DNA from: Chthonomonadia bacterium
GTDB taxonomy: Bacteria; Armatimonadota; HRBIN16
NCBI GenBank assembly: GCA_013314755.1
Contig: JABUFA010000021.1
Span: 251 to 64,250, forward strand
Length of the DNA: 64,000 bases
Reading direction: 5' to 3'
Below are positions 30,029 to 64,000 of the stretch, piece after piece; within the stretch, counting starts at the first letter, position 1, and each line of letters begins with the position of its first letter. A program made the position numbers and the translations under genes. The notes under the pieces are model-generated. The model searched no databases and was not told the DNA's origin. It was given only the letters and a program-made list of their open reading frames with translations.

Positions 30029-30159
30029 ATATACAGATGCTCATTCCCAGAAACGGTGACAAGAGAAGAGAGGGGAATATCTGCATCTTCGCTGGTTTGT
30101 TATTGCAGTCGCACGTCAACCCGCCCCGGCAAGGGGCAAAATGCAAGGAGGGTGTTGGT

Positions 30160-31663: not shown

Positions 31664-31766
31664 CCTCTTTTTCGCCCGTGTGCTCGTGCGCCTCGTGTGT
31701 GCGTTCTGCAGCGCGAGGCGCATTGCTTTTACTGGCAATCCACAGCAGGAAGGAGACGGGCGAAAG

Positions 31767-33695: not shown

Positions 33696-33708
33696 CACCG
33701 AAAACCTC

Positions 33709-33737
33709 CCCCTCTCCCGGCGCGCCCGGGGGAGGGG
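33709..33737. repeat. CCCCTCTCCC...GGGAGAGGGG-type palindrome
   Basis: CCCCTCTCCCGG-CGCGC-CCGGGGGAGGGG inside the prkA operon; related copies at 44725-44779. Confidence 0.55.
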
Positions 33738-33759
33738 CGAGAACGCGAGGTGAACGACG

Positions 33760-42504: not shown

Positions 42505-42705
42505 GGAGTATCCCTGTAACTGGAAGTTGCAGGCTGGGCTGAAGCATGGCTTCAGCGGTCCATAACCTGCGCCAGCAGGTCTGTCTGGGGTAACAACCCT
42601 GCAACTGGAAGTTGCGGGCCACTCATGACGAAGCCTCCTTGCGGAGGCTATAAACCTGCTTCAGCAGGTTTTGTCAATGGTTGCCTGCGATTTTCAATCG
42701 CAAGG
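42505..42705. repeat. REP/BIME-like palindrome mosaic, copy 2
   Basis: Seven hairpins: 42513-33, 42538-56, 42565-80, 42597-618, 42632-49, 42654-69, 42684-705; modules shared with copies 1 and 3. Confidence 0.85.
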
Positions 42706-48913: not shown

Positions 48914-50986
48914 ATGAACGCGCAGACCGCACCAGAACTGAGCGTAGCACCACCAGTTTCTCTGGGACGCTACCGGCTGTATCACTGGCAGGACGGCACC
49001 TTCTGGATAGCGATGCCGCAGGGCAAAGCGGAGGTGCCGCTGGTGGGCGTCAACGCGCCTCTGTCCCCCATCACGCTCACAACCTCTCACGAACACCACG
49101 CCCTGTTTGTGCGCAACCTGGACGCCCGAAAGGGCGAGGCAGCCCTGTGGGATGAGCGCGTGATAGACAATGTGCCGGTGCGATGGGAAATCCTGCTCGA
49201 AGAACAGGATGGCGACCTGTGCATGCAAATGCACTTCCTCAGTTACGGCTCCCTGCAGGCTGAGGTGCACTTTTTGTTAAACCTTGACGATGAAAGTTTA
49301 ACCAGAATCTTCTCGTGTGCCCATCCCTCCGCGCTGATAGAGACGGCGCGCCACACTATCTCCATCGTCACCCTTCAGCCCGCAACACCTGCCTGTCTGC
49401 GCCAGGAGGGGGAGGAGCGACTGGTGTGGACCCTGCCTCCTGCCAGCCTGCACCAGCAGAGTCTGCACCTGCGCGTCCATGTGCAACCGTGCGAGCAGAA
49501 GGGAGAGGCTCCTGTCCAACACGTGGAGTACAGAGGTTCGCTGTTCGTGCCAGAGGCGTTCTCGGCTTCCTCTCTCAAGCTCCGGGCGGCGGCGCAGAGT
49601 GCGGTTGCTCTCCTGCTGAACCCCGACAGGCAGGCACATCTCGCCGAAGACCAGGTGGTGCTGTGGGTGGCTCCGGGCGACCGCCGCTTCAGTGCGTTCA
49701 CCATCGCCGCGGCGAAGGCGCTGTTGGACTGGAGGCGGTTTTCAGGAGAGGAATCGGCGGCGTGGACGGCTCGGCTCGCCATGAACAGCGCGATGGAGTT
49801 TCAGGTGCTCAACGCACAGAATGCCAACAGCGGCGCGTGCTGGGACACGGTGGACGAACACAAACAGGGCGCGGACATCACCGGACGACGGCGCTTTAAC
49901 CTCCATCGCAATGCCCAGCTGTTCCAGCACCTGCTTCTGCTGCACCGGGATACCGGCTCTGAACTCAGCGTGAGGGTGGCGTTCAACGGCATCTCGTGGC
50001 TCCTGCTGAAGCGAGGGGCAACGGGCAGATACGACGGTGCAAACGTCCTGCCGGATGGCACGGTAGAGAGAGGCGACGGCAGGGGAATCATGGGGGCGAT
50101 TGTGTCGGTGATGTGCACGGCATACGGTCTCACCGAGACGGAAGCGTACATCCACGGGGCGAACCGCCTGGCAGAATATCTCCTGCGCGATTGCTGTCAG
50201 CCGCTGTCTCCGGGCTCCGTGATGTCTGCCGAGCTCCCGCCCAGCCTGCAGGATGACGTGTTCGCTGCCTCAAGCATTATCCAGGGTCTGGCACGCCTCT
50301 ACCGTGCCTACCCGCATGAGCAGTGGCGGGACGGCGCCCTGCGTATGGCACAGTGGCTGCGCCTGTGGCAGATTCAGGCGGACTTAGAAGGGGTTGGCGA
50401 AGCAGGGGAGGTGCTGGCGGGGGAAAGAAGCCCGGGCGGCTTTGTGGATGCCAGCATCGAAGCGGCAAGAGGTGCGCTGTGGGCGTTTTCTCTGCAGCGA
50501 GACACTCGCTGGTTCGCCTACGCCACACGCGCCCTGCACACGGCAGCAGGTTATCTTGACCCGCTCGCCGGCTTTCCGGATGCCAAACTGGCTTACCCCG
50601 ACCACGTACACGCCCTTGCGCTGTTCGTGCGCGCCTATCTGCACTGGTTACTCTCCATCCCCGCGCTGGCGCCGGAGGTGGAATGTGACCCCGACCTGCT
50701 GGTGTGCCGCTATGGCAATCGCATCTTCGTGCCGGAGCCCAGCCTGTGGCAATCAGTGCGCGTGCAGGCACGTGGGCTGATAGACTGGGTGGCGCTGGCG
50801 TGCCCGGCGACGCATGACGTGCTGGTGGCGGTGCTGACAGACGGAAGCAGTGGTGCTGCGCAGGTGCATGCCGGTGAGCATCGCCAGCTAGCGACCGACC
50901 TGATAGGCGGCGACACGGGCGCGATATACCCCCTTCATCCTGTGCCCGGCGTTGGCAGTGTCGGCGTGTACATCCTGCAGGCGTAA
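48914..50986 (+). CDS. hypothetical protein, possible (alpha/alpha)6 barrel core
   Basis: Repeated helical units (EAYIHGANRLAEYLL; GLARLYRAYPHEQWRDGALRMAQWL; RWFAYATRAL). Start ATG 48914 after AGG. Confidence 0.6.
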   Translation: MNAQTAPELSVAPPVSLGRYRLYHWQDGTFWIAMPQGKAEVPLVGVNAPLSPITLTTSHEHHALFVRNLDARKGEAALWDERVIDNVPVRWEILLEEQDGDLCMQMHFLSYGSLQAEVHFLLNLDDESLTRIFSCAHPSALIETARHTISIVTLQPATPACLRQEGEERLVWTLPPASLHQQSLHLRVHVQPCEQKGEAPVQHVEYRGSLFVPEAFSASSLKLRAAAQSAVALLLNPDRQAHLAEDQVVLWVAPGDRRFSAFTIAAAKALLDWRRFSGEESAAWTARLAMNSAMEFQVLNAQNANSGACWDTVDEHKQGADITGRRRFNLHRNAQLFQHLLLLHRDTGSELSVRVAFNGISWLLLKRGATGRYDGANVLPDGTVERGDGRGIMGAIVSVMCTAYGLTETEAYIHGANRLAEYLLRDCCQPLSPGSVMSAELPPSLQDDVFAASSIIQGLARLYRAYPHEQWRDGALRMAQWLRLWQIQADLEGVGEAGEVLAGERSPGGFVDASIEAARGALWAFSLQRDTRWFAYATRALHTAAGYLDPLAGFPDAKLAYPDHVHALALFVRAYLHWLLSIPALAPEVECDPDLLVCRYGNRIFVPEPSLWQSVRVQARGLIDWVALACPATHDVLVAVLTDGSSGAAQVHAGEHRQLATDLIGGDTGAIYPLHPVPGVGSVGVYILQA

Positions 50987-50999
50987 ACAAAAGTTTGCG

Positions 51000-51028
51000 T
51001 TGTCACGGCGTGTGGATTCTGCTATAAT
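51000..51028 (+). promoter_or_regulatory. dnaA promoter
   Basis: TTGTCA-17 bp-TATAAT; RBS AAGGAGG precedes GTG 51064. Confidence 0.75.
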
Positions 51029-51063
51029 TCGGCGTTGGACGAGGAAAGGAGGGCGGGCTCGAG

Positions 51064-52470
51064 GTGGAGGACCAGTTGCATCTGGGCGAAGACGAAAACA
51101 CGCTGGCTCTGCGCCGCGCGTGGGACCGGGCGATGCACACGCTGGCAAACCGCGTGAACAAGCCCTCGTTCGAATCCTGGTTCAAAAGCATGAAGCCCGT
51201 CTCCTTTGACGGGGAGAGGGCAGTGCTGGGCGCACCGAGCCCGTTCGCCTGTGAGTGGGTCACCAAACGGTATGGCAACCTGGTGCGCGAGGTGCTGTCT
51301 CAACATTTGGGCAGGTCGGTGGAGGTGTCCATTATCTATCTGCCCCCCGACAAGCGCCCCGTGCTGGGAGAGCCGCCCGCCGAAGAGCCGTCTGCTCCAA
51401 AGGAGACCGTACTTCCCGTAGAACCCGAGCCAGTTGCCTTCGAAAAGCCGGTGTTGAACCCGAAATACACCTTCGAGAACTTCGTGGTGGGCAATTCCAA
51501 CCGGCTGGCGCAGGCGGGAGCCATGTCGGTGGCGCGCGCGCCGGGGCAGAGCTATAATCCGCTGTTCATCTACGGTGGGGCGGGGCTGGGCAAGACGCAC
51601 CTGATGCACGCCATCGGGCACTACATCCTGCAGGCGCATCCGCGTCTGAGGGTCGCCTATCTCTCCGGCGAGACCTTTGCCCAGCAGTATGTTGCTGCCC
51701 TGCGGGAACACCGCATTGATGTCTTTCGGCAGAAGTACCGCAACGTGGACGTGTGGCTGGTGGACGATATCCAGTTCATCGCGGGCAAAGAGCACACTAA
51801 AGAGGAGTTCTTCCACACCTTCAACGCGCTGTACCAGATGGGAAGACAGGTGGTGTTCGCCAGCGACCGACCGCCCCGCGAACTGCACGCGATGGACGAC
51901 CGCCTCCGTTCGCGCTTCGAGGCAGGGTTGATTGCGGACATCGCACCACCGGAGTTGGAAACCCGTATAGCTATTTTGCAAAAACGTGCACAGATTGAGG
52001 GCATTCAGGTTCCCGACCAGGTGATCTACCACATCGCCTACGCGGTGGAGGGCAACGTGCGCACGCTTGAAGGAGTGCTCATCTCCATCGCCGCGCGGGC
52101 GTCGGTGCACGGCAAACCCATCACCCTGCAGCTGGCGAACGAGGTGCTGGCAAGGCACTACGTGGACGAAAAACAGATGCCGGTCATACCTACCGAACAG
52201 GCGGTACTGCAGGCGGTCTGTCAGCGATTCGGGCTGACAACGCAGGATATTCTGGGCGACCAGCGCAGCCGCGAGGTGTTGATGGCACGGCAGATAGCGA
52301 TGTATCTTTTGCGCGAGAAGGCGCAGCTTCCGCTTCAGCAAATCGGGCAGATGTTTGGCAAGAACCACTCGACGGTGCTTCACGCCTGCAACCGCGTGCG
52401 CAGTAGTCTGCACAGAGACGCCGAGATTACCAGCATCATCCACGATTTGGACACACTTTTGGGCAACTGA
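51064..52470 (+). CDS. dnaA: chromosomal replication initiator
   Basis: LNPKYTFENFVVG, YNPLFIYGGAGLGKTHL, VDDIQF, EEFFHTFN, RLRSRF, GNVRTLEG, ARQIAMYL, NHSTVLHA. Confidence 0.97.
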   Translation: MEDQLHLGEDENTLALRRAWDRAMHTLANRVNKPSFESWFKSMKPVSFDGERAVLGAPSPFACEWVTKRYGNLVREVLSQHLGRSVEVSIIYLPPDKRPVLGEPPAEEPSAPKETVLPVEPEPVAFEKPVLNPKYTFENFVVGNSNRLAQAGAMSVARAPGQSYNPLFIYGGAGLGKTHLMHAIGHYILQAHPRLRVAYLSGETFAQQYVAALREHRIDVFRQKYRNVDVWLVDDIQFIAGKEHTKEEFFHTFNALYQMGRQVVFASDRPPRELHAMDDRLRSRFEAGLIADIAPPELETRIAILQKRAQIEGIQVPDQVIYHIAYAVEGNVRTLEGVLISIAARASVHGKPITLQLANEVLARHYVDEKQMPVIPTEQAVLQAVCQRFGLTTQDILGDQRSREVLMARQIAMYLLREKAQLPLQQIGQMFGKNHSTVLHACNRVRSSLHRDAEITSIIHDLDTLLGN

Positions 52471-52860
52471 GGCTTGGTCATTGTTGAAACATTTGCTATA
52501 AATGTTCAAAACTTTGTTGAAAACTCCCCAAAAATTGTTGAAAACTCTCCTGGAGTGTTCAAAACTTTGTTGAAAACTTGCTCACTTCCGCCCGCGCCGC
52601 ACCGATTTCAACAATTTTGTGCAGGTTTTCAACAGAGTTTTCAACAATGCATTGTTGAAATCTTTGCTATCTGTGTTGAAACTGAACGAACTAATCAATT
52701 GGATAAATAGACAATTTCTTGATTTTATAGAGACGAAAATAAGCATAATATCAACAAAACACGATTCCGATACACGCAAATACTACCGAGTTTTCAACAA
52801 TTTCAACAAGTACATAATAATAAATAAGGGGGAGAGTGTGCATTCACAATGTTCAAAAAC
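52471..52860. other. oriC: probable replication origin oriC with non-canonical DnaA boxes
   Basis: AT-rich intergenic region right after dnaA; TTTTCAACA exact at 52515, 52536, 52568 (reverse) and 52626, 52638, 52791 (forward), plus 8 one-mismatch copies. Confidence 0.85.
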
Positions 52861-53467
52861 CTGTAGGAAGGGAGGAAATCGGTTTTCTTCCTCGTGCCAG
52901 ATAGAACTCTGGTTCATCAATGACTTCCACATCAACCCAACCTGCCTGGGTCAGCATTGTCCTCATCTTATCGGCTGGAGGTACCCGGTCCTCAAAAACG
53001 GCTTGGTGCTGACTGTGTATTCTGTTCACTGCTTCTCGACCGATGGGATGCGAAATTACCACCAGCCCACCCGGACGCAGTACCCGCCACGCCTCCTGCA
53101 AAGCGGTCTTCTTATCATCGAAGTGCGGAAACACGGCGTTGCACAGCACGCGATGGAAGCTTTCGTCCTTCAGACCTGCGCGCTGCATATCACCGTGCAC
53201 CAGATGCACATTGGGCGGAAGCATTCTCCCTTTCGCCTGCTTCAGCATCTGCAGAGAGATGTCTAACGCGACGACCAGTCCGCTCTCCCCGATTGCCTCC
53301 AGAATATATGGGATCAACACCCCGGTGCCTGTACCCACGTCCAGCACTCGCTGTCCCGGCTGCAGGTCAGACAGCAGAACTACCCGCGCCAGACGCACTG
53401 AGATATCTGCGACCCCCTGGCTATCCCATTCCTTTGCCAGACTGTCGAAGAACGCGCTTTTGTTCAA
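52853..53467 (-). CDS. class I SAM-dependent methyltransferase (UbiE-like)
   Basis: FFDSLAKEWD, VLDVGTGTG, ALDISLQML, NAVFPHF. Stop/start overlap with the permease gene. Confidence 0.88.
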   Translation of the reverse strand: MNKSAFFDSLAKEWDSQGVADISVRLARVVLLSDLQPGQRVLDVGTGTGVLIPYILEAIGESGLVVALDISLQMLKQAKGRMLPPNVHLVHGDMQRAGLKDESFHRVLCNAVFPHFDDKKTALQEAWRVLRPGGLVVISHPIGREAVNRIHSQHQAVFEDRVPPADKMRTMLTQAGWVDVEVIDEPEFYLARGRKPISSLPTGF

Positions 53468-54285
53468 CTTTTGCCTCCCGTCCGTTTTGGAGATAGGGTA
53501 ATTGCTATCAGCAGACCGGCGGTGGAAATCAGCACAATCATCGCGCCGCTGGGCAGGTTAAACAGCACGGAAAGTGCAAGCCCAATCCAGCCCGCCATGA
53601 CGGCAAAAACCGCCGACAGCACGAACAGGTTTCTGAGGTTGTAGGTAAGCTGATAAGCGGTGGCAGCAGGATTAATCACCATGCTGAACACCAGCAGTCC
53701 TCCAATCGCGCTGAGCGATGCAGTGATAGCGGCACCACTGCACACCAGCACCCCGTAAAATATAGCGGTTGCCGGCAAGCCCGACGCACTTGCCAGCTCG
53801 CGGTGGAAGATAACCGCCTGAATCTCTTTGAAGAAGAGCGCAGTCAGCATCACTATTCCGCCGGCTACATATCCCAGCACACGCAGGTTATCGCTGGTGA
53901 CGGTCAGCACATTTCCCCAGAGCCAGCTCAACGCCTCGCTTTTCGGTCCCGGAAGGAGTGCAAGCAGGAGAAAAGCCAGCGCAATAGAAGCGGAGAACAC
54001 CACGCCGATTGCTGTATCGGGGCTGAGGTTGCCTCTGTCTGCCAGAGGACCCAGAACGCCTACAGCAAGCAGACTACCCACCAGTGCACTGCTCAGCGGC
54101 GATATTCCAAAGTGAAGCCCAACCAGCGCACCTGCGAACGCCGCATGAGAAATACACACCCCAATGAACGACAGGCGCATCGTTACCACCAGCACGCCGA
54201 CGAGCGAGCAGGCTACTCCCGACAGCGCGGTGGCGAGCATGGCGCGAAGCATGAACTCTTCTTTCCAGATGTCCACCCACGTCAT
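53464..54285 (-). CDS. metal ABC transporter permease (ZnuB/MntB family)
   Basis: ISHAAFAG, DTAIGVVFS, LWGNVL, IGGLLVFSMVINPAATA, LPSGAMIV. Start moved to ATG 54285. Confidence 0.9.
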   Translation of the reverse strand: MTWVDIWKEEFMLRAMLATALSGVACSLVGVLVVTMRLSFIGVCISHAAFAGALVGLHFGISPLSSALVGSLLAVGVLGPLADRGNLSPDTAIGVVFSASIALAFLLLALLPGPKSEALSWLWGNVLTVTSDNLRVLGYVAGGIVMLTALFFKEIQAVIFHRELASASGLPATAIFYGVLVCSGAAITASLSAIGGLLVFSMVINPAATAYQLTYNLRNLFVLSAVFAVMAGWIGLALSVLFNLPSGAMIVLISTAGLLIAITLSPKRTGGKS

Positions 54286-55004
54286 GTTAGCTCCCGCCCG
54301 ATGTATGTCAGAAGGTCGCGGGCTTGCAGGTCGCCCAGAATGCTTCCACCCTCCATCAGCACCACTCGGTCGCATAGCTGAGCGAGAAAGGGAGCATCGT
54401 GCGAGACCACAATGGTGGTCAGATTGCTTGCCTGATGCACCTGGCGGATCAGGGATGTCAGGTCGCGCACGAACTGCCAGTCCACCGAGCTGGTGGGCTC
54501 GTCCATTAACAGCAGATGCGGTGCTGAGGCGAGGGCGCGTGCCAGCAGGACTCTCTGCTGTTCCCCGCCGGAGAGATGCCCAAACGGCTTATGGGCAAGA
54601 TGCAGGACGCCCATTTTCTGCAGAGCATCAGCTGCCGCCTGGTGGTGCGTGCGCGAGGGAAAGCGCAACAGTCCAATGCGGGCATATTGTCCCATCATCA
54701 CCACGTCCCAGGCGCGTACCGGCGTGCGCGGGTCTATGTTCAGCATTTGCGGCACGTAGCCAATCTGCTGGCGCAGTTGCGGCAGGTAACTGCCGGTGCA
54801 TGGGACGCCGTTTACCAGTATCTGTCCCTGCCGAACGGGAACCAGCCCCAGGATCGCCCGAATCAGCGTGGATTTACCTGCGCCGTTGTGCCCGAAAAGC
54901 CCCAGCAGTTCGCCCTGCCTTACCCGAAGCGATATGTTGCGAAGTGCAGGTGTCTTTCCGTAGAACACCCACACTTCGCGAAGTTCACAGGCAACCTGAG
55001 CCAT
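54282..55004 (-). CDS. metal ABC transporter ATPase
   Basis: GHNGAGKST, GYVPQ, LSGGEQQRVLLARAL, LLMDEP. Confidence 0.93.
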   Translation of the reverse strand: MAQVACELREVWVFYGKTPALRNISLRVRQGELLGLFGHNGAGKSTLIRAILGLVPVRQGQILVNGVPCTGSYLPQLRQQIGYVPQMLNIDPRTPVRAWDVVMMGQYARIGLLRFPSRTHHQAAADALQKMGVLHLAHKPFGHLSGGEQQRVLLARALASAPHLLLMDEPTSSVDWQFVRDLTSLIRQVHQASNLTTIVVSHDAPFLAQLCDRVVLMEGGSILGDLQARDLLTYIGRELT

Positions 55005-55837
55005 CTCTTCTGCTTCGTCCGTTTGACCTTGCCGACCGCGGAGATGACGCGCCGAACGTTCTCACGCAGACAGGCTTCCCAGCTTGCCGTGTTGGGCAGT
55101 CCGCCGGGGAAATTGCTGAGCAGTACATGCTGTGCGTTCAAATCTCGCGCCAGCTCCACGCCGGTGTTCGCGCCGCTTTGCAGGTTGTCAATCACCAGCC
55201 GTACCCCTGCCTGTCGCGCGGAGCGTACCACGTTCAGCCATTGGGCAGGGGTCAGGTCCTCCGCACGCCCATAGCTCACCACCACCTTCAGCTCCATCCA
55301 ACGCAGCAGCGGCTCCAGCATATCCGATCCTGCAACAGGTGTACCGGGCACGCCAGCGCGACGCATGCTCCTCCTGAGCTCGTCTTCCACCGCTCTGGCA
55401 CGCTGGCGCAGGCGCTGCAGGTTGCGGCGATACTCGTGCGCTCCGTTTGGGTCAAGCCGAACAAGTATGTCGGTGACTCTTTCGCCTGCTTCCAGGAAGG
55501 TGGCGGGCACGAGCCAGTTTCCCTTTACGCCGATACGATGGACCACCGTGTCTCCACCTGCTACCTCGCCGATGCGGTCGATAAATCGCTCGAACTGGTG
55601 CGCAAACAGCACGCGCGACCGCTTGATAGTTGCCACGTCGCCGGGGCGCAGGTCAAAGTGTCCGGGACATGAAGCCGGGGGTATCAGTACGTTGACCTGT
55701 ACCCGTGAACCTCCGATTTCGCGAAGGAGGCTTCCCAGCAGGCTGGTGGTTGCGGTAACCTGCAGGGGCTCGGCGGACGTGCCCCCCGTCACACCGAGCC
55801 ATATCCACGCGATGAACAGCACCGTTAGTCTTCTCAT
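54920..55837 (-). CDS. metal ABC transporter substrate-binding protein (ZnuA-like fold)
   Basis: Signal peptide, [36 protein letters not shown]. The 3' end overlaps the ATPase by 85 nt. Confidence 0.82.
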
Positions 55838-56520
55838 GGGTTGCCTTCGTAGGTGATGTCCCAGTAGTAGCGCATGGTGCTTTCGGGCACTACCGTCAGC
55901 GGCGCGTTGTTCAGGGTGACGGGGTTGCCCTGACCGTCCTCGTGGTCGGTGTTGCTGTGGTAGGCTTCGGGCTTCAGCCAGCGCACGTGCCCATCGCCAA
56001 AAAGCAGATTCGAGCCGCCGCCATGAATGCGCGTGACCGCCCAGTAACAGGTTGCTCCCCCAGCGAAGAGTCCAGCTGGACCGACTGGAGGTCCGGCGTT
56101 ACAGCGGTCCCATTCTACCACCAGGATTTTATTTGCGGGAGCTACCACCGCCGCCATACTGCGCTCCTGAAAGCCGACCACCGGCGGTGTAATGTTCGCG
56201 TATCCGATGTTGTAGCCCTGCCCGTAATACCACGGCAGGTGCTGGCGGCTGGGACACCTGTTAATGTCGAAGGTCTTGATATAGGGCTGGAGGCGGGTTT
56301 TCCACTGGTACACGGGTGGGTATACCTCGTCGTAGTCCGCCGTGTACATGTGGAACGCCAGACCCAGCTGTTTCAGGTTGCTCTGACAGGTAGCGGCACG
56401 TGCCTTTTCCCGTGCCTGAGCAAAGACGGGGAACAGTATTGCCGCCAGTATCGCGATAATCGCGATGACCACCAGCAGCTCAATCAGCGTGAAGCCTGAT
56501 GGTAGTAACCTGTTCTTCAA
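55834..56520 (-). CDS. prepilin-type N-terminal / DUF1559 / H-X9-DG protein
   Basis: [59 protein letters not shown] start with AGGAG 10 nt upstream. Confidence 0.88.
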
Positions 56521-56557
56521 AATCGTGCTACTCCTGGTAGACAAAAAACGCCCGCGG

Positions 56558-56977
56558 TTATGCGAGCGACTTGCCTGTCGTGGTACAAACGAGCTTTCCA
56601 TGTTTCACCCCTCGCGTACTGATGAGTTTATCCGCTATGGCTCGCACCTGCTGGGCGGAACCGCGCAATACTACCACCTCCATGCAGTGATGTTCGTCCA
56701 GATGCACGTGCGTGGTGCAGATGATGGATTCGAGGTGGTGGTGTTGCAGGTGCGTCAGGGTCCGCGCCAGTTCGCGCATCTCATGGTCGTACACGATGGT
56801 CACCGTGCCTACGACCTCGCCGGTGTCGCTCTCCCACTCGCTTTCCACCAGTGCGTCACGCATCAGGTCGCGCACTGCTTCTGAGCGGGTGCGGTAGCCT
56901 TTACGTTCGATCAGGCGGTCGAAGGCGTCCACCAGCTCTGACGGGATAGATACTCCAAATCGCTTCAGCTTTGCCAT
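56558..56977 (-). CDS. nikR: nickel-responsive regulator
   Basis: RHH strand [13 protein letters not shown], metal site H...HVH-x5-C ([13 protein letters not shown]). Confidence 0.95.
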
Positions 56978-56980
56978 AGC

Positions 56981-57026
56981 GTAACACCTTTTGAATTATT
57001 GTAACACAGGATGTCGTTAGCGTCAA
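56981..57026 (-). promoter_or_regulatory. nikR promoter with candidate NikR operator
   Basis: Minus strand TTGACG-17 bp-TACAAT. GTGTTAC-13 bp-GTGTTAC (56981-57007) covers the -10 element and the RBS. Confidence 0.75.
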
Positions 57027-57032
57027 GCCGCT

Positions 57033-57515
57033 TCACTGCACCTTCTTGCCGTCGATGAAGGTGGTTTCCTTCAGCGATTCGGTCATCTTCACTTTCCAGC
57101 CCTGCGGGGTTTTAACCCACGTGTCGCGTGTCGTGGCTCTGGTATACGCCCTGTGGGGTTTGCCCTGCGTATCCAAAAAGGTAAAAGCCAGCTCCTCCTC
57201 GGTGGTCACCAGCACGGTGTTGCCCTTGAACTCCATCTTCTTGATGGTGGTGGTGCGCTTCTGGACCGACTTCATCATCCTGAACTGGTCGCGCATTGCC
57301 GATTCCACCATCTGTTTGTTCATCACGCCCCCTGTCTGGGTTTTATACAGGAAGTCTGGCGTCATCTGGCGGAGCAGTCCTTCCAGATTCTTCTGCTTGA
57401 AGTACCGCACGGTTTTGGCGTATTCGGCGCGAATCTGCCGCTCGGTCTTTTTGTCCGCGGTCGCGATGCCAGCAAGAAGCAGAAAGATACTCATCACGGT
57501 AAATATTGTTCTCAT
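57033..57515 (-). CDS. secreted SnoaL/NTF2-like (DUF4440-type) protein
   Basis: Signal peptide; alpha+beta pattern ending DTWVKTPQGWKV. Confidence 0.75.
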   Translation of the reverse strand: MRTIFTVMSIFLLLAGIATADKKTERQIRAEYAKTVRYFKQKNLEGLLRQMTPDFLYKTQTGGVMNKQMVESAMRDQFRMMKSVQKRTTTIKKMEFKGNTVLVTTEEELAFTFLDTQGKPHRAYTRATTRDTWVKTPQGWKVKMTESLKETTFIDGKKVQ

Positions 57516-57600
57516 GTCGATTCTCCCCCTTTCTCACAATGTTTTTACACAAAGGAATGGGAATATCCTGTTGGGAGAACTCCGGTGCTCCGAAGAAGAG

Positions 57601-57717
57601 CTAACCCTGCAACTGGAAGTTGCAGGCTCTGCTGAAGCATGGCTTCAGCACTCCATAAACATGCGCCAGCAGGTTTTGTCCTGTGTAGCCTGCGATTTCC
57701 AATCGCAAGGACACTCT
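57601..57717. repeat. REP/BIME-like palindrome mosaic, copy 3
   Basis: CCTGCAAC-TGGAA-GTTGCAGG, GCTGAAGC-ATG-GCTTCAGC, GTAG-CCTGCGATT-TCC-AATCGCAAGG. Confidence 0.85.
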
Positions 57718-57750
57718 CCTCATCCAGCCCCCCGACCTCTGCATAACCTC

Positions 57751-57779
57751 TTGACATGTTTTCGTGGTTACTCTATAAT
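57751..57779 (+). promoter_or_regulatory. perfect-consensus sigma70 promoter
   Basis: TTGACA-17 bp-TATAAT. Confidence 0.85.
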
Positions 57780-57810
57780 GGTCACACACTTTGCAGCAGA
57801 GGGAACAATC

Positions 57811-58200
57811 GTGTGCAGAGTAGCGCTGTTTTGCCAGGATGCACCCCTTCTTCAGAAACTGCGCAGTTGTCTGGAGAAAGAAGGCTTTACCGTGTGCATA
57901 CATCCCTGCCAGGCGGAAGCGGTGGCAGTGGTCGATTCGCCCTTAACGCCCGCGCAGGTGGAGGTGTTGCAGGCGTATGTGGAGGCAGGAGACGTGGAGG
58001 AGGTGGCGCGGTTAAGGGGTTGTTCAGCGGAGACAGTTCGGCGTCATCTGGCGGAGGCGCGGCGGCGGGTGGGGGCAAAGAACGTGGCGCAGTTAGTTCA
58101 CATTGCCTGGGCGTTAGGTTTGTTAACCATTGGGTATAACAAAAATTGGTCAAAAAAATGGCAAAAATTTGGTATTGACGCGGGGGGGGGGACGATGTAG
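57811..58200 (+). CDS. LuxR-type HTH regulator with truncated receiver-like N-terminus
   Basis: LTPAQVEVL...EEVARLRGCSAETVRRHLAEARRRVGAKNVAQLV...GLL; this is the 3' part of the supplied ORF 57046..58200; GTG start after GAGGG. Confidence 0.75.
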   Translation: MCRVALFCQDAPLLQKLRSCLEKEGFTVCIHPCQAEAVAVVDSPLTPAQVEVLQAYVEAGDVEEVARLRGCSAETVRRHLAEARRRVGAKNVAQLVHIAWALGLLTIGYNKNWSKKWQKFGIDAGGGTM

Positions 58201-58203
58201 AAT
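58175..58203 (+). promoter_or_regulatory. sigma70 promoter with G10 tract in the spacer
   Basis: TTGACG-C(G)10ACGATG-TAGAAT (17-bp spacer), preceded by three A-tracts near 58140, 58152 and 58163. Confidence 0.75.
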
Positions 58204-58238
58204 AGGGGGTAGAAAACTCAAAAAGGAGGAGGTACCCC

Positions 58239-58652
58239 ATGCAACGTGGTAGCTTCATCTACGCCCTGCTTGTTGCGGCGGTGGCTGTAGCGATTCTGTG
58301 GTACGGGACGCAGGAGGTTGTTGCCTCCAAGGATCCCATTCCTTATTGCCCACCCCCTGTTACGAAGCGGCAAAGTTACTGCAGTAACGATTATTACACG
58401 TGCCGTGACAGCACCTGTACAAATGCAGTTCAGGGGTGCGTGAATCTGCCGTCTTTGACAGTGTGTGGAGGGGTTGGAAGCGGAAAATTCGTTGCCACTC
58501 CGACGAAGCTCTATGTGTGCAAGCCAAGCACGAACCCCAAAGACACCTGCACGGAGTTTGGTCAGGAGTGCGGTCGTTACATTCTCTATGTGCTATCCAA
58601 CTGTAATATGCCCCTCTACGACAGGCCCGGATTTCAAATAACCTGTAGGTGA
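58239..58652 (+). CDS. secreted cysteine-rich small protein
   Basis: Strong RBS AAGGAGGAGG, signal peptide, 11 Cys in about 108 mature residues. Confidence 0.82.
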   Translation: MQRGSFIYALLVAAVAVAILWYGTQEVVASKDPIPYCPPPVTKRQSYCSNDYYTCRDSTCTNAVQGCVNLPSLTVCGGVGSGKFVATPTKLYVCKPSTNPKDTCTEFGQECGRYILYVLSNCNMPLYDRPGFQITCR

Positions 58653-58656
58653 GGAC

Positions 58657-59706
58657 ATGACTGTTTGGCTCAGGATTGCTATCAACATGATGTTGCTGTT
58701 TACACTTTGTGTTGCTGAGGGACAGTCCGCCGTCCCTCAGCCGTCTACACTGCTTGATGCCGCCGAGCAGCTGTATTCCGACTTTACTCAGCACATCCGC
58801 TCGTATAAATTGGAGGGGCAAAAGAAGGTCCGGCTTAGGCTGCGTGACCAGGCAATAGATGCCAATGGCCAGTGGCAGCCATGGCAGGAAACTGCCCGAT
58901 GGCGCGTTTGGCGGCATAAGAACCTTTTCATCTGGGATTGCACCAGGAGCGACGGGCAGCGAACCGTTTATAGCTTCGACGGTAAGCGCTACTATTGCTA
59001 CACCGGTTGGTCATCATCTGGCGTTATTCAAAACGCGCAATCATTGCGTCAAACAGACCTGCCGCCGTGCCAGAATAATTTTTACGACATATACCCATTT
59101 GATGTGGCTCACCTCCTGCAGTCTCCGCTAGCAGGGGGAAGCTGGCTCACTGAAGAACCGTTTTATTCCACCCTGCGCCGGTCGTTTCTGTCTTCTCTTG
59201 AAGTTGTACGTGCTAGCCCTTCGTCGCTGACATACACGTTGCGAATAAAGCCCTCAGGTCGCCTCGTCAAAACATCGGAACATCTACCGGGCGAGATCGT
59301 CTTCCAGCTAGACAGAGACCGCTTTCTTCCTGTCAAGATGTTATTGAGAATTGGCGAGCAGGAAGAGATGGAATACCGAGTTGTCTCATCACAGTGGTTT
59401 GGCACCTGCTGGGTGCCAACGGAAGTAAGCATCATCGCGCGAAGGGCAACACCGTCTGGAAAGAAAGCCGATATTGCAGAAACGCGCATCAGTTTGCGAG
59501 TACACGACGTCAATCAAAATATCCCGCCACAGGCTTTCCAGTTCGAGTTTCCTGCTGGAACACGCCTGACTGACGAAACCGGCGGCGAGTCCATTGTCGG
59601 CGTGCGATGGCTGCGCATTTTCATAGGTGTCAGCGTTGTGGTGCTGATAATGCTACTGGCAGGCATCTTGTTGCGGCGTTGGCTTGGCGTGGGGAGGAAA
59701 CAATGA
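58657..59706 (+). CDS. exported protein, LolA/RseB-like fold, with C-terminal TM anchor
   Basis: Signal peptide, beta-rich body, VNQNIPPQAFQFEFPAGT, then a hydrophobic helix followed by RRWLG. Confidence 0.65.
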   Translation: MTVWLRIAINMMLLFTLCVAEGQSAVPQPSTLLDAAEQLYSDFTQHIRSYKLEGQKKVRLRLRDQAIDANGQWQPWQETARWRVWRHKNLFIWDCTRSDGQRTVYSFDGKRYYCYTGWSSSGVIQNAQSLRQTDLPPCQNNFYDIYPFDVAHLLQSPLAGGSWLTEEPFYSTLRRSFLSSLEVVRASPSSLTYTLRIKPSGRLVKTSEHLPGEIVFQLDRDRFLPVKMLLRIGEQEEMEYRVVSSQWFGTCWVPTEVSIIARRATPSGKKADIAETRISLRVHDVNQNIPPQAFQFEFPAGTRLTDETGGESIVGVRWLRIFIGVSVVVLIMLLAGILLRRWLGVGRKQ

Positions 59707-60722
59707 ACCGTACACCTCCACGGCTGATTTATCTCCTGCTCGGAGTTGCGTTAGCATGTCTGATAGGGCTAATGTTTGTGACACGACCTGTAATGTCGCC
59801 TGATACTGCTCCAAGGATACGGGTTTTCCGCCTGCGTTTTGTTCCTCAGCGGTGGGTTTTGCCTACGGATATTGCAAGGCTCCATCGCACTAAGGTGCGA
59901 TTGTGCAACGATTCCGAAAAAGATATTACAGTTGATGTGGATACTTGCTGCGATGTGTCTGTAGAACCGAATCACAACATACGTGTACCATCCCGAAGAT
60001 GTGTCACCTTGCATCTGACCAGCCAGCCTACCGCAGACAGGAACTATCGCGGAGCCATCTTTGTGCGCGCCCGGGGTACGCAATCGCCCGTGGCTATGTT
60101 GCCCATTCTTGGAGACGTACGCGAAAGTATCCTATCATCGCCTACCCGCACGATTTCACTCCCAGCTCTGGTTAGAAAAAGCCCCGATACCTCCAGTAAA
60201 GTTGTCTGTGCCGCGCTGGCAGTTGACCCACCCTTTGAGGTGGTGGGATTGACGGCTGCGGCTACTTGGCTACAGGTGTGGTACCAACATCAAGACACCC
60301 AGACAGTTCTCTATGCTCAGTCTCTACCGTACGCTCGAGAGGGTGAATTTCGGGTTCCCCTTGTGGTTCGCTACCGTACACAACCGGGGCGGACAGGAGA
60401 GGACATCCTCACATTGGAAGGAGAAATTACCTCCATGGTACAGGTTCACCCTGAAAGGCTCTTTTTCGGTGTTCTGCAGCATGGAAAGCACGTGGCGGCG
60501 AAAGGGCTGACGATTCGCTCGAGGATGTATCAGAACAAGCCGGTCTCCGTTCGGCTCGACTGCCCTCTGTTCTCCGCCAATGTCCGACAAAGTGCTCCAG
60601 ATGCGTGGCAGGTAACAGTATCTTTTTCGCCTCTTCGCAAAGGCGAGATTACAGGTGAACTACGAGCCTATGTGGATGGGCAGTTGCTATGCAAGGTGCC
60701 GCTTTCCGCTTACGTTCAATAA
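59703..60722 (+). CDS. membrane-anchored Ig-like repeat protein (DUF1573/ASH-like)
   Basis: N-terminal TM; LCNDSEKDITVDVDTCCDVSV resembles the DUF1573 N...SCGC motif; VHPERLFFG starts another Ig-like module. Confidence 0.6.
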   Translation: MNRTPPRLIYLLLGVALACLIGLMFVTRPVMSPDTAPRIRVFRLRFVPQRWVLPTDIARLHRTKVRLCNDSEKDITVDVDTCCDVSVEPNHNIRVPSRRCVTLHLTSQPTADRNYRGAIFVRARGTQSPVAMLPILGDVRESILSSPTRTISLPALVRKSPDTSSKVVCAALAVDPPFEVVGLTAAATWLQVWYQHQDTQTVLYAQSLPYAREGEFRVPLVVRYRTQPGRTGEDILTLEGEITSMVQVHPERLFFGVLQHGKHVAAKGLTIRSRMYQNKPVSVRLDCPLFSANVRQSAPDAWQVTVSFSPLRKGEITGELRAYVDGQLLCKVPLSAYVQ

Positions 60723-62641
60723 CAGGTAGACGCACTGCAATCGCTGCAGCTGGATGGCTATGCTTTGTGGCAGTGCAACTCTTGTGGCTATATCCTTCCT
60801 CTGTTTTTTCCAAGATGACTTTGGCCGAGCTGTCTTTTATCGGTCAGGAGCTGGCTGGCAGCTACATCTCTTATTTCTTGCTGTGGTTTTGTGCGCTCGC
60901 CCAAGCGCTGCTCGTGCTTCGGGTCGTTGGACAAAACGCCACGAGGGAAATGGCGTCCCTGCTGTTGTTGTTTCCCTTATTGCTCATCTGGGATGCACTG
61001 TTCTCTCTGTATCCGGGCTATCCGGTGGAGCGAGTGAACCTACTGCTGTTGTCGTGGAACAGCGCGATAGTGTGCTTTTTGCTGATGAGACACCTCCGCG
61101 TGGGATGCATTGCTCAAGCAATCCCAACAGCCGTTGTGGGTTTAGAAACAGTAACCTCTCTACTGGAGTGGAATCCGCAGGATCGGCTCAGTGGCGGTTT
61201 TGGAAACCCATTGTTCTTCTATCCGCTGCTGGTGTATGGACTGGCGATTGCAGCGTCGGGGGCTGTAAGCACACCAACGCTTGTTGGGCAAGTTGGCTGG
61301 TCGGTGTTGGCGATTGTCTTTTCCGTCGGCTTGGTTGCTAACGCAACCCGTGCTGGTATTATCGCATGTGCTGTCGTTGTCATTTACTTGATCTACAACG
61401 CAGTGTGGGGTAGACTGGACGTGCGCCATCCACGACCGGTGATTGTAACGCTTCTGCTGGTTGGTATACTTCTCATGGTTGGCTGGCACCGACGCGCGGA
61501 ACTCGCCAACACTACGCTTACCCAAGAACGTTCGGCGTTGTCCCGTCCCGTACTCTGGTGGGCGGGGTGGCGCGTGACATTAGCAACACACGGACTGGGA
61601 TGCGGATTGGAGAATTACGCTAATGCTCAGAGCCAGCTAACTGAACTCATTCTACTAAAACAGTCCATGATGCCCAATGAGCCCCATCATCTTTTTCTGG
61701 GGATGCTTGCAATCTATGGCACCGGCGGACTATTGTACCTCTGCTACTTTCTATCCGCATCTTGGAAGCTGTCGTCCAATAGGTGCGGGAACTTGCGAAT
61801 TGCAGGGCGCGCTATCCTGCTGGCAACAATTGTCATGGGCATGTCGGATACGGTGCTATTCATTCCCCAACAAGCACGGGCTACCTTTTTCTTCCTGCAG
61901 TGGTGGTTCTTTGCACTGATTCCAGCCACTGAATCAGCGACCAGCCAGAACCGTGCTCCTCTTCCGTCCAAACATCTGCGTCTCTTCATGAAGCTGACCG
62001 CATTGGTATTTCTTATGGCAGCTGCTGGAGTGATGTACACCTACTCAGCAGTTGCTCCTTATCGTTCGCGATTGGACTTATTGGAGAGAAGACATGTTCT
62101 CCCCCTGTCCCACTATCCACCTGAGATGATACGGATGCTGATCGCACGCGAGGATCGAAATTTCTATTCGCACCGCGGAGTGGATTGGCGAGGGGTGCAC
62201 CGAGCACTTCGGGCTAATTTGAGAACCCTGAGATACGCACAGGGCGGAAGCACAATTACTCAGCAAATGGTGCGTGTCTTGGTTCTGGATCCAGCGATAG
62301 CCAAACGAAAAAGCATCTTACGAAAAATGGTAGAAATGTGGCTGGCAATAGAGGCCGAACGACGCCTCAGTAAGACAAGGATTTTGGAATTGTATCTGCC
62401 GACGGTCATCGAACCGCTTGACCTGCTGAGTAGCAGCGAAAAGGATGTTGCCCGTCTGTCTGTCGCAGAGATGGCCACGTTTGTCGGCTGGCTTCCTGTA
62501 TCTCTTCAGAGCGAGGTCGATTTTGCCCGCACAGTGGCTCTCCGAAATGCTGTTCTTTCCGCGTTAGACGAACAGCGCGCTGTCACATATTCATTGGCAC
62601 CGCTACAGATAGTTGCTCCGTGCCAATGTGGAGTACGGTGA
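60689..62641 (+). CDS. O-antigen ligase-like (Wzy_C) domain fused to a GT51 transglycosylase domain
   Basis: RLSGGFGNP, TRAG, SRPVLW, GLGCGLENY, PHHLFLGML..YG..G, then EDRNFYSHRG, QGGSTITQQ, RKMVE, KTRILELYL. Start uncertain. Confidence 0.8.
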   Translation: MQGAAFRLRSITGRRTAIAAAGWLCFVAVQLLWLYPSSVFSKMTLAELSFIGQELAGSYISYFLLWFCALAQALLVLRVVGQNATREMASLLLLFPLLLIWDALFSLYPGYPVERVNLLLLSWNSAIVCFLLMRHLRVGCIAQAIPTAVVGLETVTSLLEWNPQDRLSGGFGNPLFFYPLLVYGLAIAASGAVSTPTLVGQVGWSVLAIVFSVGLVANATRAGIIACAVVVIYLIYNAVWGRLDVRHPRPVIVTLLLVGILLMVGWHRRAELANTTLTQERSALSRPVLWWAGWRVTLATHGLGCGLENYANAQSQLTELILLKQSMMPNEPHHLFLGMLAIYGTGGLLYLCYFLSASWKLSSNRCGNLRIAGRAILLATIVMGMSDTVLFIPQQARATFFFLQWWFFALIPATESATSQNRAPLPSKHLRLFMKLTALVFLMAAAGVMYTYSAVAPYRSRLDLLERRHVLPLSHYPPEMIRMLIAREDRNFYSHRGVDWRGVHRALRANLRTLRYAQGGSTITQQMVRVLVLDPAIAKRKSILRKMVEMWLAIEAERRLSKTRILELYLPTVIEPLDLLSSSEKDVARLSVAEMATFVGWLPVSLQSEVDFARTVALRNAVLSALDEQRAVTYSLAPLQIVAPCQCGVR

Positions 62642-63687
62642 TGACGCGACGATTATCTCATAGATACCTTGTGGCAGCTTTGTTACTGGCTACGCTTGTC
62701 GCGCACTATACTGTGACGATGCAACAGGAGCAGTCTCCCTCTCCAAATGAACCTCTCTCGCGGTATCTGACATGCGTGGTGGATGATACGCAATATTCCC
62801 CCAAACCTAAGCTTGTGGCAATATGGTGGATTCAGTCGTGCAGTCAGTTTACAGATGTGGTGCAGATACCTGTGCGAATGCTGGTACGCTTTGATGTTTT
62901 CAGTAAGCCCGTGACGCTAGAAAGCCTGTATGACAACGGTGAGCTTGCCAGAACCTTGCCTTCTGTACTTATCTACAGCCTTGGTCTGCCAGTTCCCCAA
63001 ATTACCTTCTGTTCACTGCGAGACTTACTCAGCTCGCGAGCTTTGCAGTATCCAGTTACCCTGTTCTTGGACGAAGCTTACACAGTGTTCACCGAAACCT
63101 ATACTGTGGCCTTTCACACGGGCACTTTCAAAGCTGGCGAAGAAGAAATTCGCCACCTTTTGTCTGGTTACACGTTGTTTGGAGGCGAATGGTCACGCAT
63201 GTGGCGACAAAGAACAGTGCTGCGGAGTTTGCTCGACCGTGTGCACCAGCTGCCGCCAGGATGGGAATGGCTCCGTCTACTGCAAAAGAGGAAGGTGCAG
63301 TTTCATGTGCCTCCATGTACGCGTCCCGTCGGATGGAAAGGTGGATTGGAAGGCGACTATCTGTTCCTGGTTCCTGGCGGCTTTTCTGCTAAAGCCCTTG
63401 AACTGCGAAAAAGAGACGCTCGCTTTCTGACACGTGTTTCGCTTTGCTTTGACATGGACGTCGCACCTCCGGTACGCCAGCAGATAGTGGAACAGGTTTT
63501 TAACGAAGGATATTCCGTCTCTATCGCAATCGGGAATCAGCAGTGTGAGCAGTCATTTGATTTGCCTGACGAAGTTGGGCGGGTTACAAGGAGACTTCAA
63601 CATATTCTGAGCCAACATAAATTGACAGTCGAGCCGTTTTTGCGGAATCGCACGCTGATACTAACCATTCATAAAGAAGGAGGCTAA
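62641..63687 (+). CDS. membrane-anchored hypothetical protein, possible degenerate thioredoxin-like fold
   Basis: ATG overlaps the previous TGA; N-terminal TM; KLVAIWWIQSCSQF and YPVTLFLDE resemble TlpA-type motifs. Confidence 0.6.
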   Translation: MTRRLSHRYLVAALLLATLVAHYTVTMQQEQSPSPNEPLSRYLTCVVDDTQYSPKPKLVAIWWIQSCSQFTDVVQIPVRMLVRFDVFSKPVTLESLYDNGELARTLPSVLIYSLGLPVPQITFCSLRDLLSSRALQYPVTLFLDEAYTVFTETYTVAFHTGTFKAGEEEIRHLLSGYTLFGGEWSRMWRQRTVLRSLLDRVHQLPPGWEWLRLLQKRKVQFHVPPCTRPVGWKGGLEGDYLFLVPGGFSAKALELRKRDARFLTRVSLCFDMDVAPPVRQQIVEQVFNEGYSVSIAIGNQQCEQSFDLPDEVGRVTRRLQHILSQHKLTVEPFLRNRTLILTIHKEGG

Positions 63688-63693
63688 GGCACC

Positions 63694-64000
63694 ATGCGAA
63701 AGGGATTCACGCTGATAGAACTGCTGGTGGTGATAGCCATCATCGCCCTGCTGGCGGCGCTGATATTTCCTGTGTTCTTCCGTGCGAGAGAGGCGGGGCG
63801 CAAGGTTACCTGCTCCTCCAACGTGCGCCAGCTGGCGCAGGCATGGGTGATGTATGCGCAGGACTGGGACGAGCGCACGCCGGGCGGGGCATACACCCGC
63901 TTTGCGGACAAATATACAGGCAGAAGTCCCGATGGCAAGCGGTACACCGCGCTGTGGGCGCTGTTGCCCTACGTGCGCACCGAGAAGATATTCGTGTGCC
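63694..64000 (+). CDS. prepilin-type N-terminal / DUF1559 protein (runs off the window)
   Basis: [60 protein letters not shown]; high GC3 resumes here. Confidence 0.88.

Follow-up and report, generated by a model that had tools for sequence, protein, structure and literature searches.

We analysed 64,000 nucleotides of DNA (the 64-kb window) from a Chthonomonadia bacterium of the phylum Armatimonadota (contig JABUFA010000021.1), in which a gene for a prepilin-like protein of the DUF1559 family lies between the gene for the nickel-responsive repressor NikR and a set of importer genes. Open reading frame calls and profile searches placed six co-oriented minus-strand genes at 52853-56977; nikR and the pilin-like gene are the two genes within the span 55834-56977. 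From the first gene to the last, the locus contains:

56558 to 56977, minus strand: nikR, nickel-responsive ribbon-helix-helix repressor, 139 amino acids (aa) (RHH_1 and NikR_C; NF003381)
55834 to 56520, minus strand: DUF1559 / H-X9-DG prepilin-type protein of the nickel subfamily, 228 aa (PF07963, PF07596, TIGR04294)
54920 to 55837, minus strand: ZnuA/TroA-type periplasmic binding protein (PF01297, 82 bits; invariant SCPGH)
54282 to 55004, minus strand: ATP-binding cassette (ABC) transporter ATPase (ABC_tran, 124 bits)
53464 to 54285, minus strand: ABC-3 family permease (ABC-3, 171 bits; probable start ATG 54285)
52853 to 53467, minus strand: class I S-adenosylmethionine (SAM)-dependent methyltransferase, 204 aa, the last gene (77 bits)

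The six co-oriented genes, their families and their overlaps or short gaps had been described in an earlier sequence-only reading of this DNA; all were found on the minus strand and the profile matches agree. The five genes from the pilin-like gene to the methyltransferase gene are linked by overlapping start and stop codons. The pilin-like stop and the binding-protein start overlap as ATGA, ATPase and permease meet in another ATGA at 54285, and permease and methyltransferase share a TTGA at 53467. The permease frame itself is open up to 54375, beyond the probable start. At the binding-protein/ATPase junction, a CAG stands after the K275 codon (55004-55012) where the usual stop is expected, and the resulting 30-aa tail overlaps the ATPase gene by 85 nt. 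A 93%-identical relative of the binding protein terminates at residue 275; the CAG may be natural variation or a sequencing error. The nikR product matched the NCBIfam model NF003381 with 209 bits (equivalog cutoff 105) and NikR_C with 108.8 bits, RHH_1 was also matched, and a putative H-x10-H-x-H-x5-C ligand pattern can be read off its sequence. The likeliest start of the pilin-like gene is TTG 56520, which has AGGAG 10 nt upstream and gives a nine-residue leader. It was preferred to ATG 56601, which lies inside nikR (44-nt overlap) and has no ribosome-binding site.

The pilin-like protein belongs to a tight orthologue family in Armatimonadota with 51-90% identity. Its 120 closest homologues are 59-100% identical, every taxon-named one is from Armatimonadota, and some relatives carry the NCBI name 'DUF1559 family PulG-like putative transporter'. 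In a first locus scan, by full-length alignment over named genomes, the shared pilin helix outweighed the rest of the protein, and all hits were paralogues with no more than 47% identity; these were reused as the control set. A second scan, this time over metagenomes, used an alignment of the C-terminal domain alone and subfamily-specific motifs; it yielded 80 loci at 51-86% identity. The open frames in all loci were classified against the reference proteins of the window and of locus L002, and gene context was counted in the 71 orthologous loci having at least 300 nt of downstream DNA. An importer gene directly follows the pilin-like gene in 64 of these 71 metagenome loci (∼90%), which stem from related bacteria of hot springs and sediments, the downstream neighbours being:

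48 loci: ∼200-aa multi-pass membrane protein, the putative S component of an energy-coupling factor (ECF) transporter
12 loci: ZnuA protein
3 loci: FmdE
1 locus: methyltransferase

Importer context was found in only 1 of 80 paralogue loci (L007), and this one is a 42%-identical distant orthologue from Zipacnadia, a class of Armatimonadota, with nikR and an S component flanking it. The sequence-only reading had placed the pilin-like gene inside a NikR-controlled metal uptake operon; it had proposed a survey of such genes in NikR/Fur/Zur or sugar-ABC operons and had named the gene's absence from homologous operons as evidence to the contrary. The pairing of pilin and importer is kept in nine tenths of the orthologous loci, which, together with the operators described below, bears that view out: the gene is a conserved operon member and no chance neighbour.

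Two operon types were recognized. Type A, found in the window and in the complete genome CP070648, has the order pilin-ZnuA-ATPase-ABC-3-methyltransferase, and type B the order pilin-S component-FmdE-CbiQ-ATPase. On a tree of 54 orthologues the importer type needs 3 changes, compared with 13.3 when the labels are shuffled, which argues that the pilin family stayed at the locus while the whole inner-membrane importer was swapped a few times. Judged by their genes, some of the seven exceptional loci still appear to be metal-related. L127 has an ArsP_2 metal permease downstream, L147 has the genes for S component and FmdE ∼5 kb downstream, and in L113 and L165 a fusion of a DUF4198 (NikK-like) domain and TrmO_N is encoded directly upstream of the orthologue. 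L122 is a close relative of L113 with just 317 nt downstream; L151 has an SBP_bac_3 protein, and L145 is its close relative. TrmO_N recurs in nickel contexts: it lies inside the DUF4198 secreted protein adjoining the pilin orthologue (L113:5498-6727, L165:193-1443), and it also stands as a separate gene between those for CooT and ZnuA in a metagenome-assembled genome (MAG) of Chloroflexota (L173:5424-5975).

The regulatory features around nikR and the pilin-like start are as follows:

56998 to 57026, minus strand: sigma-70-type promoter of nikR, TTGACG-17-TACAAT with TG before the -10 element (10/12 matches)
56981 to 57007, no strand assigned: predicted NikR operator box 1, GTGTTAC-N13-GTGTTAC in minus-strand reading (exact consensus match)
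56549 to 56568, minus strand: terminator-like hairpin, 7 pairs (6 G-C) then T6, across the nikR stop codon (from sequence)
56505 to 56531, no strand assigned: predicted NikR operator box 2, GTAGCAC-N13-AGGTTAC, 2 mismatches (positional conservation)

Box 1 overlaps the nikR -10 element, ends 4 nt before the nikR ATG, and is the sole exact GTRNYAC-N13-GTRNYAC site in the window (0.01 expected). Box 2 follows immediately on the ribosome-binding site of the pilin-like gene, overlapping its TTG start. With 18 two-mismatch sites by chance in the window, box 2 is not significant by itself; a box with at most two mismatches occupies this position in all 22 nikR-linked orthologous loci, and 7 of these are perfect. 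An exact box was found upstream of 43 of 63 orthologous units (∼0.02 expected by our own estimate), including 29 of 47 loci without an adjacent nikR, and the 1.6 Mb of paralogue loci that served as control contained three. These exact boxes usually lie 3-60 nt before the start codon and overlap a -10 element, and the promoter layout recurs in the orthologous loci, with TTGAC(A) ∼17 nt ahead of a -10 element that overlaps the upstream half-site. The operator precedes the pilin-like gene, not the importer genes. The published NikR signal of delta-proteobacterial nickel importers is GTGTTAC-N13/14-GTAACAC, with half-sites in either orientation (Rodionov et al., 2004; PMC545781), and the consensus found at the pilin-like loci agrees with it. 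nikR and the pilin-importer unit thus each appear to possess their own NikR operator, and both are assigned to the NikR regulon from these predicted sites.

A single promoter had been proposed for the whole gene set in the sequence-only reading. A good sigma-70 promoter does stand before nikR; one promoter is nevertheless too simple, because a terminator-like hairpin separates nikR from the pilin-importer unit and each has its own NikR box. Hairpins occur at the same place after nikR in relatives, with stems of differing sequence, and a T-run is present at this position in 18 of 22 nikR-linked loci. The hairpin may attenuate read-through from nikR into the pilin-like gene. No riboswitch was matched by Rfam models in ten loci or in window positions 50000-64000. 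In a hot-spring metatranscriptome, the genes for permease, ATPase and binding protein are covered by contigs of 99-100% identity, none with more than one mismatch, and one contig of 224 nt crosses the nikR/pilin junction. Directly upstream of the nikR promoter and on the same strand lies a gene for a secreted DUF4440/SnoaL-like protein (57033-57515, minus strand); a further metatranscriptome contig (56938-57092) runs from the 3' end of this gene through the promoter into nikR.

Judged by its sequence, the pilin-like product has all the hallmarks of a pilin-like protein that is processed and has its head outside the cytoplasm. It matched the prepilin N-terminus models PF07963 (31.9 bits, cutoff 21.2) and TIGR02532 (33.9 bits, cutoff 16.3), and the H-X9-DG model TIGR04294 (27.8 bits, cutoff 19). 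Cleavage of the leader MKNRLLPSG would occur before F and leave the mature end FTLIELLVV. Neither the G|F cleavage site nor E+5 or P+22 varies among orthologues or paralogues. All three are hallmarks of filament-forming pilins and of GspG, and E+5 and P+22 matter for assembly rather than for anchoring. PF07596 (DUF1559 / SBP_bac_10) scored 52 bits (cutoff 23.3), aligning with profile positions 2-38 of 268 only, and the central globular part diverges from this Pfam model. In a predicted AlphaFold2 (AF2) model (pLDDT 88.6, pTM 0.82), an N-terminal helix of 51 residues would carry a mixed alpha/beta head. Searched against the PDB, this model gave full-length type IV pilins as the best hits (E ∼0.07) and no significant match for the globular head.

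The relation to the type II secretion major pseudopilin GspG is confined to the N-terminus. The GspG/PulG model TIGR01710 matched the N-terminal 60 residues only, with 40.8 bits, under the equivalog cutoff of 88.85. The two share the G|F cleavage site, E+5 and P+22 within these residues; unlike GspG/PulG, the window's protein has a larger globular domain unrelated in sequence and is encoded within an importer operon. With importer genes as neighbours and no gsp cluster, identity with GspG was rejected.

Comparison of 64 orthologues with 55 paralogues separated two layers of conservation in the head. C45, C89, H166 and D176 are common to both sets, H166...D176-G177 forming the H-X9-DG motif. 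About 20 residues are invariant in the nickel subfamily only, including E136-W137-D138-R139-C140, W160, Y187-H188-S189, D195, E213, R217 and W220-D221. Candidate metal ligands would be the subfamily-invariant D138, C140, H188 and D195, beside the family-wide H166, D176 and H178. The extra ligands proposed in the sequence-only reading were retained in part: WDRC (W137-C140) and YHS (Y187-S189) are invariant and subfamily-specific, and the histidine of RIH (H166) is family-wide, whereas the cysteine of TCYW and the 'DHED' stretch are not conserved.

The importers themselves also depart from familiar types. In the ZnuA-type binding protein the subfamily invariants C57, H60, D62, H80 and D217 fall into an SCPGH...H80...DNLQS pattern; these were set by sequence comparison and stand as a putative site. 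This pattern probably departs from the canonical His/His/His-or-Glu/Asp site of the Zn/Mn proteins of the ZnuA/TroA/PsaA family, for which a cysteine at the SCPGH position would be unusual. A zinc or manganese importer was considered and rejected: the NCBIfam hits MntC and AztC are far under cutoff and cover the N-terminal third only, and the regulator and both operators are NikR-type. The ∼200-aa membrane protein of type B operons matched PF12822 weakly (E 2e-4, under cutoff), yet over the full profile length. Many of its relatives have precomputed PF12822 hits and the NCBI name 'ECF transporter S component', and genes for CbiQ and an ATPase follow it. We assign it, from these matches and its co-location with a CbiQ-type T component and an ATPase, as a predicted ECF S component.

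In Armatimonadota and in Bacillota such as Moorella, the ZnuABC-type module constantly ends with the gene for a ∼200-aa class I SAM methyltransferase (window 52853-53467; L001, L087-L098, L119, L167-L169, L172 and L175). Such a gene also follows a solitary ECF S component in one Firmicute, and two or three stand beside the module in Desulfobacterales. Its best NCBIfam hits (the DVU_1556 family and arsenite methyltransferase) are under cutoff. The FmdE-domain protein of type B operons has a His-rich N-terminus, MSEHTHEHSLH, in L002 (8246-8695), and a signal-peptide-like N-terminus and a CDCC motif in L133 (7452-7985); it may work on either side of the membrane. The conserved methyltransferase of type A and the FmdE protein of type B hint that the cargo, or its cytoplasmic handling, may involve more than a bare ion. 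Together these represent two apparently undescribed nickel-type importers, one ZnuABC-like with an SCPGH binding protein and an obligatory methyltransferase, the other ECF-type with a new S component and FmdE.

Homologous importers, whose binding proteins outside Armatimonadota are 33-44% identical, were compared for the partner encoded beside them. The loci are:

L166, Desulfobacterales: methyltransferases and a Plug-domain TonB-dependent receptor beside ZnuABC; TonB, ExbB and ExbD nearby
L170, Desulfobacterales: methyltransferases and a Plug-domain TonB-dependent receptor beside ZnuABC
L167, Moorella thermoacetica: ZnuABC-methyltransferase alone, no partner
L172, Bacillota MAG: ZnuABC-methyltransferase alone, no partner
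L173, Chloroflexota MAG: FUR, nickel chaperone CooT and a TrmO_N protein ahead of the module; no receptor or pilin
L168, Armatimonadota: secreted ∼450-aa protein and 200-aa prepilin-type protein; perfect NikR box
L169, unassigned: the same ∼450-aa and prepilin-type pair as L168; perfect NikR box

Over eight loci, then, there is no envelope partner in the three loci sampled from Bacillota and Chloroflexota, a TonB-dependent receptor in Desulfobacterales, and, in Armatimonadota, a pilin-like protein. Likewise, the S-component homologues of Firmicutes are solitary or accompanied by a methyltransferase. Between the short pilin of L168 and L169 and the window's protein, the resemblance is limited to the N-terminal 57 residues; recruitment of a pilin-like partner has therefore happened at least twice. 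TonB-dependent receptor domains (Plug, beta-barrel) were not found in the window operon. Homologues of the receptor, TonB, ExbB or ExbD were not found by phmmer in 1.4 Mb of DUF1559 loci, which is a weak test with single-sequence queries from Desulfobacterales. According to the sequence-only reading, the place of the pilin-like gene is often taken in Proteobacteria by a gene for a TonB-dependent receptor. A receptor gene does lie beside the module in the two Desulfobacterales loci, but as a divergently placed neighbour and not in the same operon slot.

These results lead us to propose, with a probability of roughly 0.55, that a nickel-regulon DUF1559 prepilin, encoded by the first gene of a NikR-repressed importer unit, captures nickel and hands it over to the importer. 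With ample nickel, NikR would occupy the two operators and shut both the nikR and the pilin-importer units. When nickel is scarce, the pilin-like protein would be made and processed by prepilin peptidase; its GspG-like pilin helix would anchor the exported protein, and the head would act outside the cytoplasmic membrane. From what we infer, metal binding falls to this head, which would capture nickel, as such or in a complex, and deliver it to the ZnuA-type binding protein here, or to the ECF S component in most relatives. That the protein is a dedicated accessory of nickel uptake, whatever its form, is highly probable. Its likeliest form would be a subunit of a pseudopilus, similar to those of type II secretion or type IV pili, that bridges the outer envelope and does the job performed by the TonB-dependent receptor for the homologous Desulfobacterales importer. 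We favour this form because of the distribution of partners over envelope types, the invariant assembly residues and the independent recruitment of a second pilin-like family; filament assembly and an outer-membrane step nonetheless stay just short of even odds. The retraction by PilT suggested in the sequence-only reading is pure conjecture. The pilT gene it placed near 30160 corresponds to an unlinked PilT/PilU-family type IVa pilus ATPase gene 25 kb off (30037-31314, plus strand; TIGR01420, 438 bits, cutoff 319).

Several observations speak against this proposal. Genes for a secretin, an assembly ATPase or a platform protein were not found in or beside these operons, and the only PilT-family gene in the window is the distant one just mentioned. 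The candidate ligands are known only as conserved residues. The partner comparison comprises two receptor, three pilin and three partnerless loci only, and since NikR boxes are absent from the Desulfobacterales and Firmicute modules, these may handle a different metal. The transcript support is thin, coming from assembled contigs of depth 2-6 with possible DNA carry-over, in a single low-depth sample without a nickel contrast. The clustering of importer type on the pilin tree fits pairing with the inner-membrane importer, or mere shared descent. Finally, in other bacteria the ECF Ni/Co importers work with small extracytoplasmic helpers anchored in the membrane, NikK/NikL/NikN and CbiN (PMC545781); these are unrelated to the outer membrane, and the pilin-like protein could be one of them.

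This last point leads to the best-surviving alternative, in which the protein is a tethered periplasmic nickel chaperone that uses the cleaved pilin helix as a membrane anchor and loads ZnuA or the S component, with neither a filament nor an outer-membrane step. It would then be comparable to NikK/NikL/NikN or CbiN, or to the binding proteins with pilin-type signals in the archaeal bindosome. The pilin-like gene is always the first, translationally coupled gene of an inner-membrane importer operon, its product is the sole protein with an extracytoplasmic soluble domain in ECF-type operons, and pilus assembly genes are not linked to it. The importer type clusters on the pilin tree, NikK-like DUF4198 proteins adjoin the orthologue in L113 and L165, and published nickel ECF systems require extra periplasmic components (PMC545781). 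On the other side, the Firmicute S-component homologues and the monoderm ZnuABC homologues have no such partner, and the diderm Desulfobacterales add an outer-membrane receptor instead; this suggests a need related to the envelope. A plain signal-anchor or lipoprotein would be a simpler tether, and E+5 and P+22, known in general to be important for filament assembly, are invariant. A tethered chaperone, which would account for most of these data, is thus a serious candidate, with the odds running somewhat against it.

A nickel-regulated pilin that shares only regulation with the importer, as a surface or adhesion subunit or for nickel buffering or storage, is improbable. NikR boxes indicate regulation and not function, and the DUF1559 family as a whole is huge and has no known function, both of which would suit such a role. 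Against it, the gene is the first and coupled gene of two unrelated importer types across 51-90% identity, and an unrelated pilin-like family takes the same place in L168 and L169. Storage in particular would be a misfit for a gene repressed at abundant nickel. It is very improbable that the gene is a passenger, which came from an expanding paralogue family and was inherited beside the importer without functional meaning: DUF1559 genes are very numerous in these genomes, with another from 63694 in the window, but the arrangement is kept in 64/71 orthologous vs 1/80 paralogue loci and outlasts exchange of the entire importer, the operator stands before the pilin-like gene and not before the importer genes, ∼20 residues are invariant in the subfamily alone, and the 51-90% identity spread argues against a few near-identical genomes.

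The proposed system can be set beside several known ones. With NikR-repressed importers (E. coli nikABCDE; delta-proteobacterial nik(MN)QO / nikKMLQO; PMC545781) it shares the ribbon-helix-helix plus NikR_C repressor, the operator consensus with 13-nt spacing and promoter overlap, an ABC or ECF target and the presence of extra extracytoplasmic components. It differs in the importers, which are none of NikABCDE, NikMNQO and NiCoT; the window has a ZnuA/ABC-3 (cluster A-I) importer with SCPGH and a methyltransferase, and its relatives have an ECF importer with a new S component and FmdE. It differs also in the extra component, here a DUF1559 protein of prepilin type. Regulator, operator and importer classes all belong to known kinds, to which the pilin-like component is a new addition.

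Helicobacter pylori has NikR-regulated TonB-dependent nickel receptors, FrpB4 and FecA3. There, as here, a diderm cell encodes an envelope component together with a nickel-type inner-membrane importer, or regulates the two together; fold and energy coupling are wholly different. In the archaeal bindosome, sugar-binding proteins of Sulfolobus with class III (pilin-type) signal peptides are assembled by the Bas system; NCBIfam includes a BasE model. The likeness lies in an importer-serving protein with a type IV pilin-like N-terminus, and the assembled bindosome is presumably a surface structure that aids uptake. The bindosome is archaeal, serves sugars and carries the signal on the binding proteins themselves, whereas here a separate small domain exists besides a classical binding protein, in diderm bacteria and under metal control. 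The one established inward transport of a substrate across the outer envelope by a pilin fibre is that of competence pseudopili and type IV pili (ComGC, PilA-ComP, PilT retraction), the model behind the retraction idea discussed above. The competence systems are encoded with their machinery and take up a polymer, whereas no assembly genes are linked at the nickel loci, where a metal ion or chelate would be carried.

Model planctomycetes have no larger paralogue family than DUF1559: Planctopirus limnophila has 68 copies, of which two are essential, and no function is known for the family (PMC10632474). The family is equally expanded in Armatimonadota. A literature search found no function for DUF1559, H-X9-DG or PulG-like proteins, and no prepilin-type DUF1559 component in any nickel system or NikR with a pseudopilin. 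The nickel subfamily provides an experimental handle on the family, with a signal (nickel), a regulator and operator, defined partners and a measurable phenotype (uptake, nickel-enzyme activity). If the pilin-like protein works in the outer envelope, it would represent TonB-independent metal import in diderm bacteria and help to explain how these phyla feed. As a tentative generalization, which we think less likely than not, DUF1559 pseudopilins might be interchangeable substrate-specific capture subunits of a TonB-independent pilus-like import device in Armatimonadota and probably the PVC phyla. The nickel subfamily would then be the first DUF1559 member with an assignable cargo, and the paralogues, of which a genome has tens to hundreds, would each serve a different nutrient operon as its adaptor. 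The second prepilin gene of DUF1559 type in the window begins at its end (63694-64000, plus strand), right after a conserved envelope gene block (58239-63687).

Further features were noted in the window. The 3' end of the nickel operon is abutted by a putative origin stretch, listed here with the other features:

51064 to 52470, plus strand: dnaA (DnaA_N, Bac_DnaA, Bac_DnaA_C)
52480 to 52850: stretch of 39% G+C behind dnaA, with ∼12 copies of TTTTCAACA / TGTTGAAAA in both orientations; probably a replication origin with divergent DnaA boxes
27298 to 29307: GAF-GGDEF protein, near the PilT-family gene and the PrkA - DUF444 - SpoVR set
31680 to 36368, plus strand: PrkA - DUF444 - SpoVR set (yeaG-yeaH-ycgB type stress module), adjoining the PilT-family gene
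57606 to 57627, 42513 to 42534 and 42598 to 42619, all minus strand: dispersed 22-nt palindrome GCCTGCAACTTCCAGTTGCAGG, 3 copies (0 expected)

The site of the 22-nt palindrome had the top metatranscriptome depth (17), with many contigs of differing flanks, as expected of a repeated, transcribed REP-like element.

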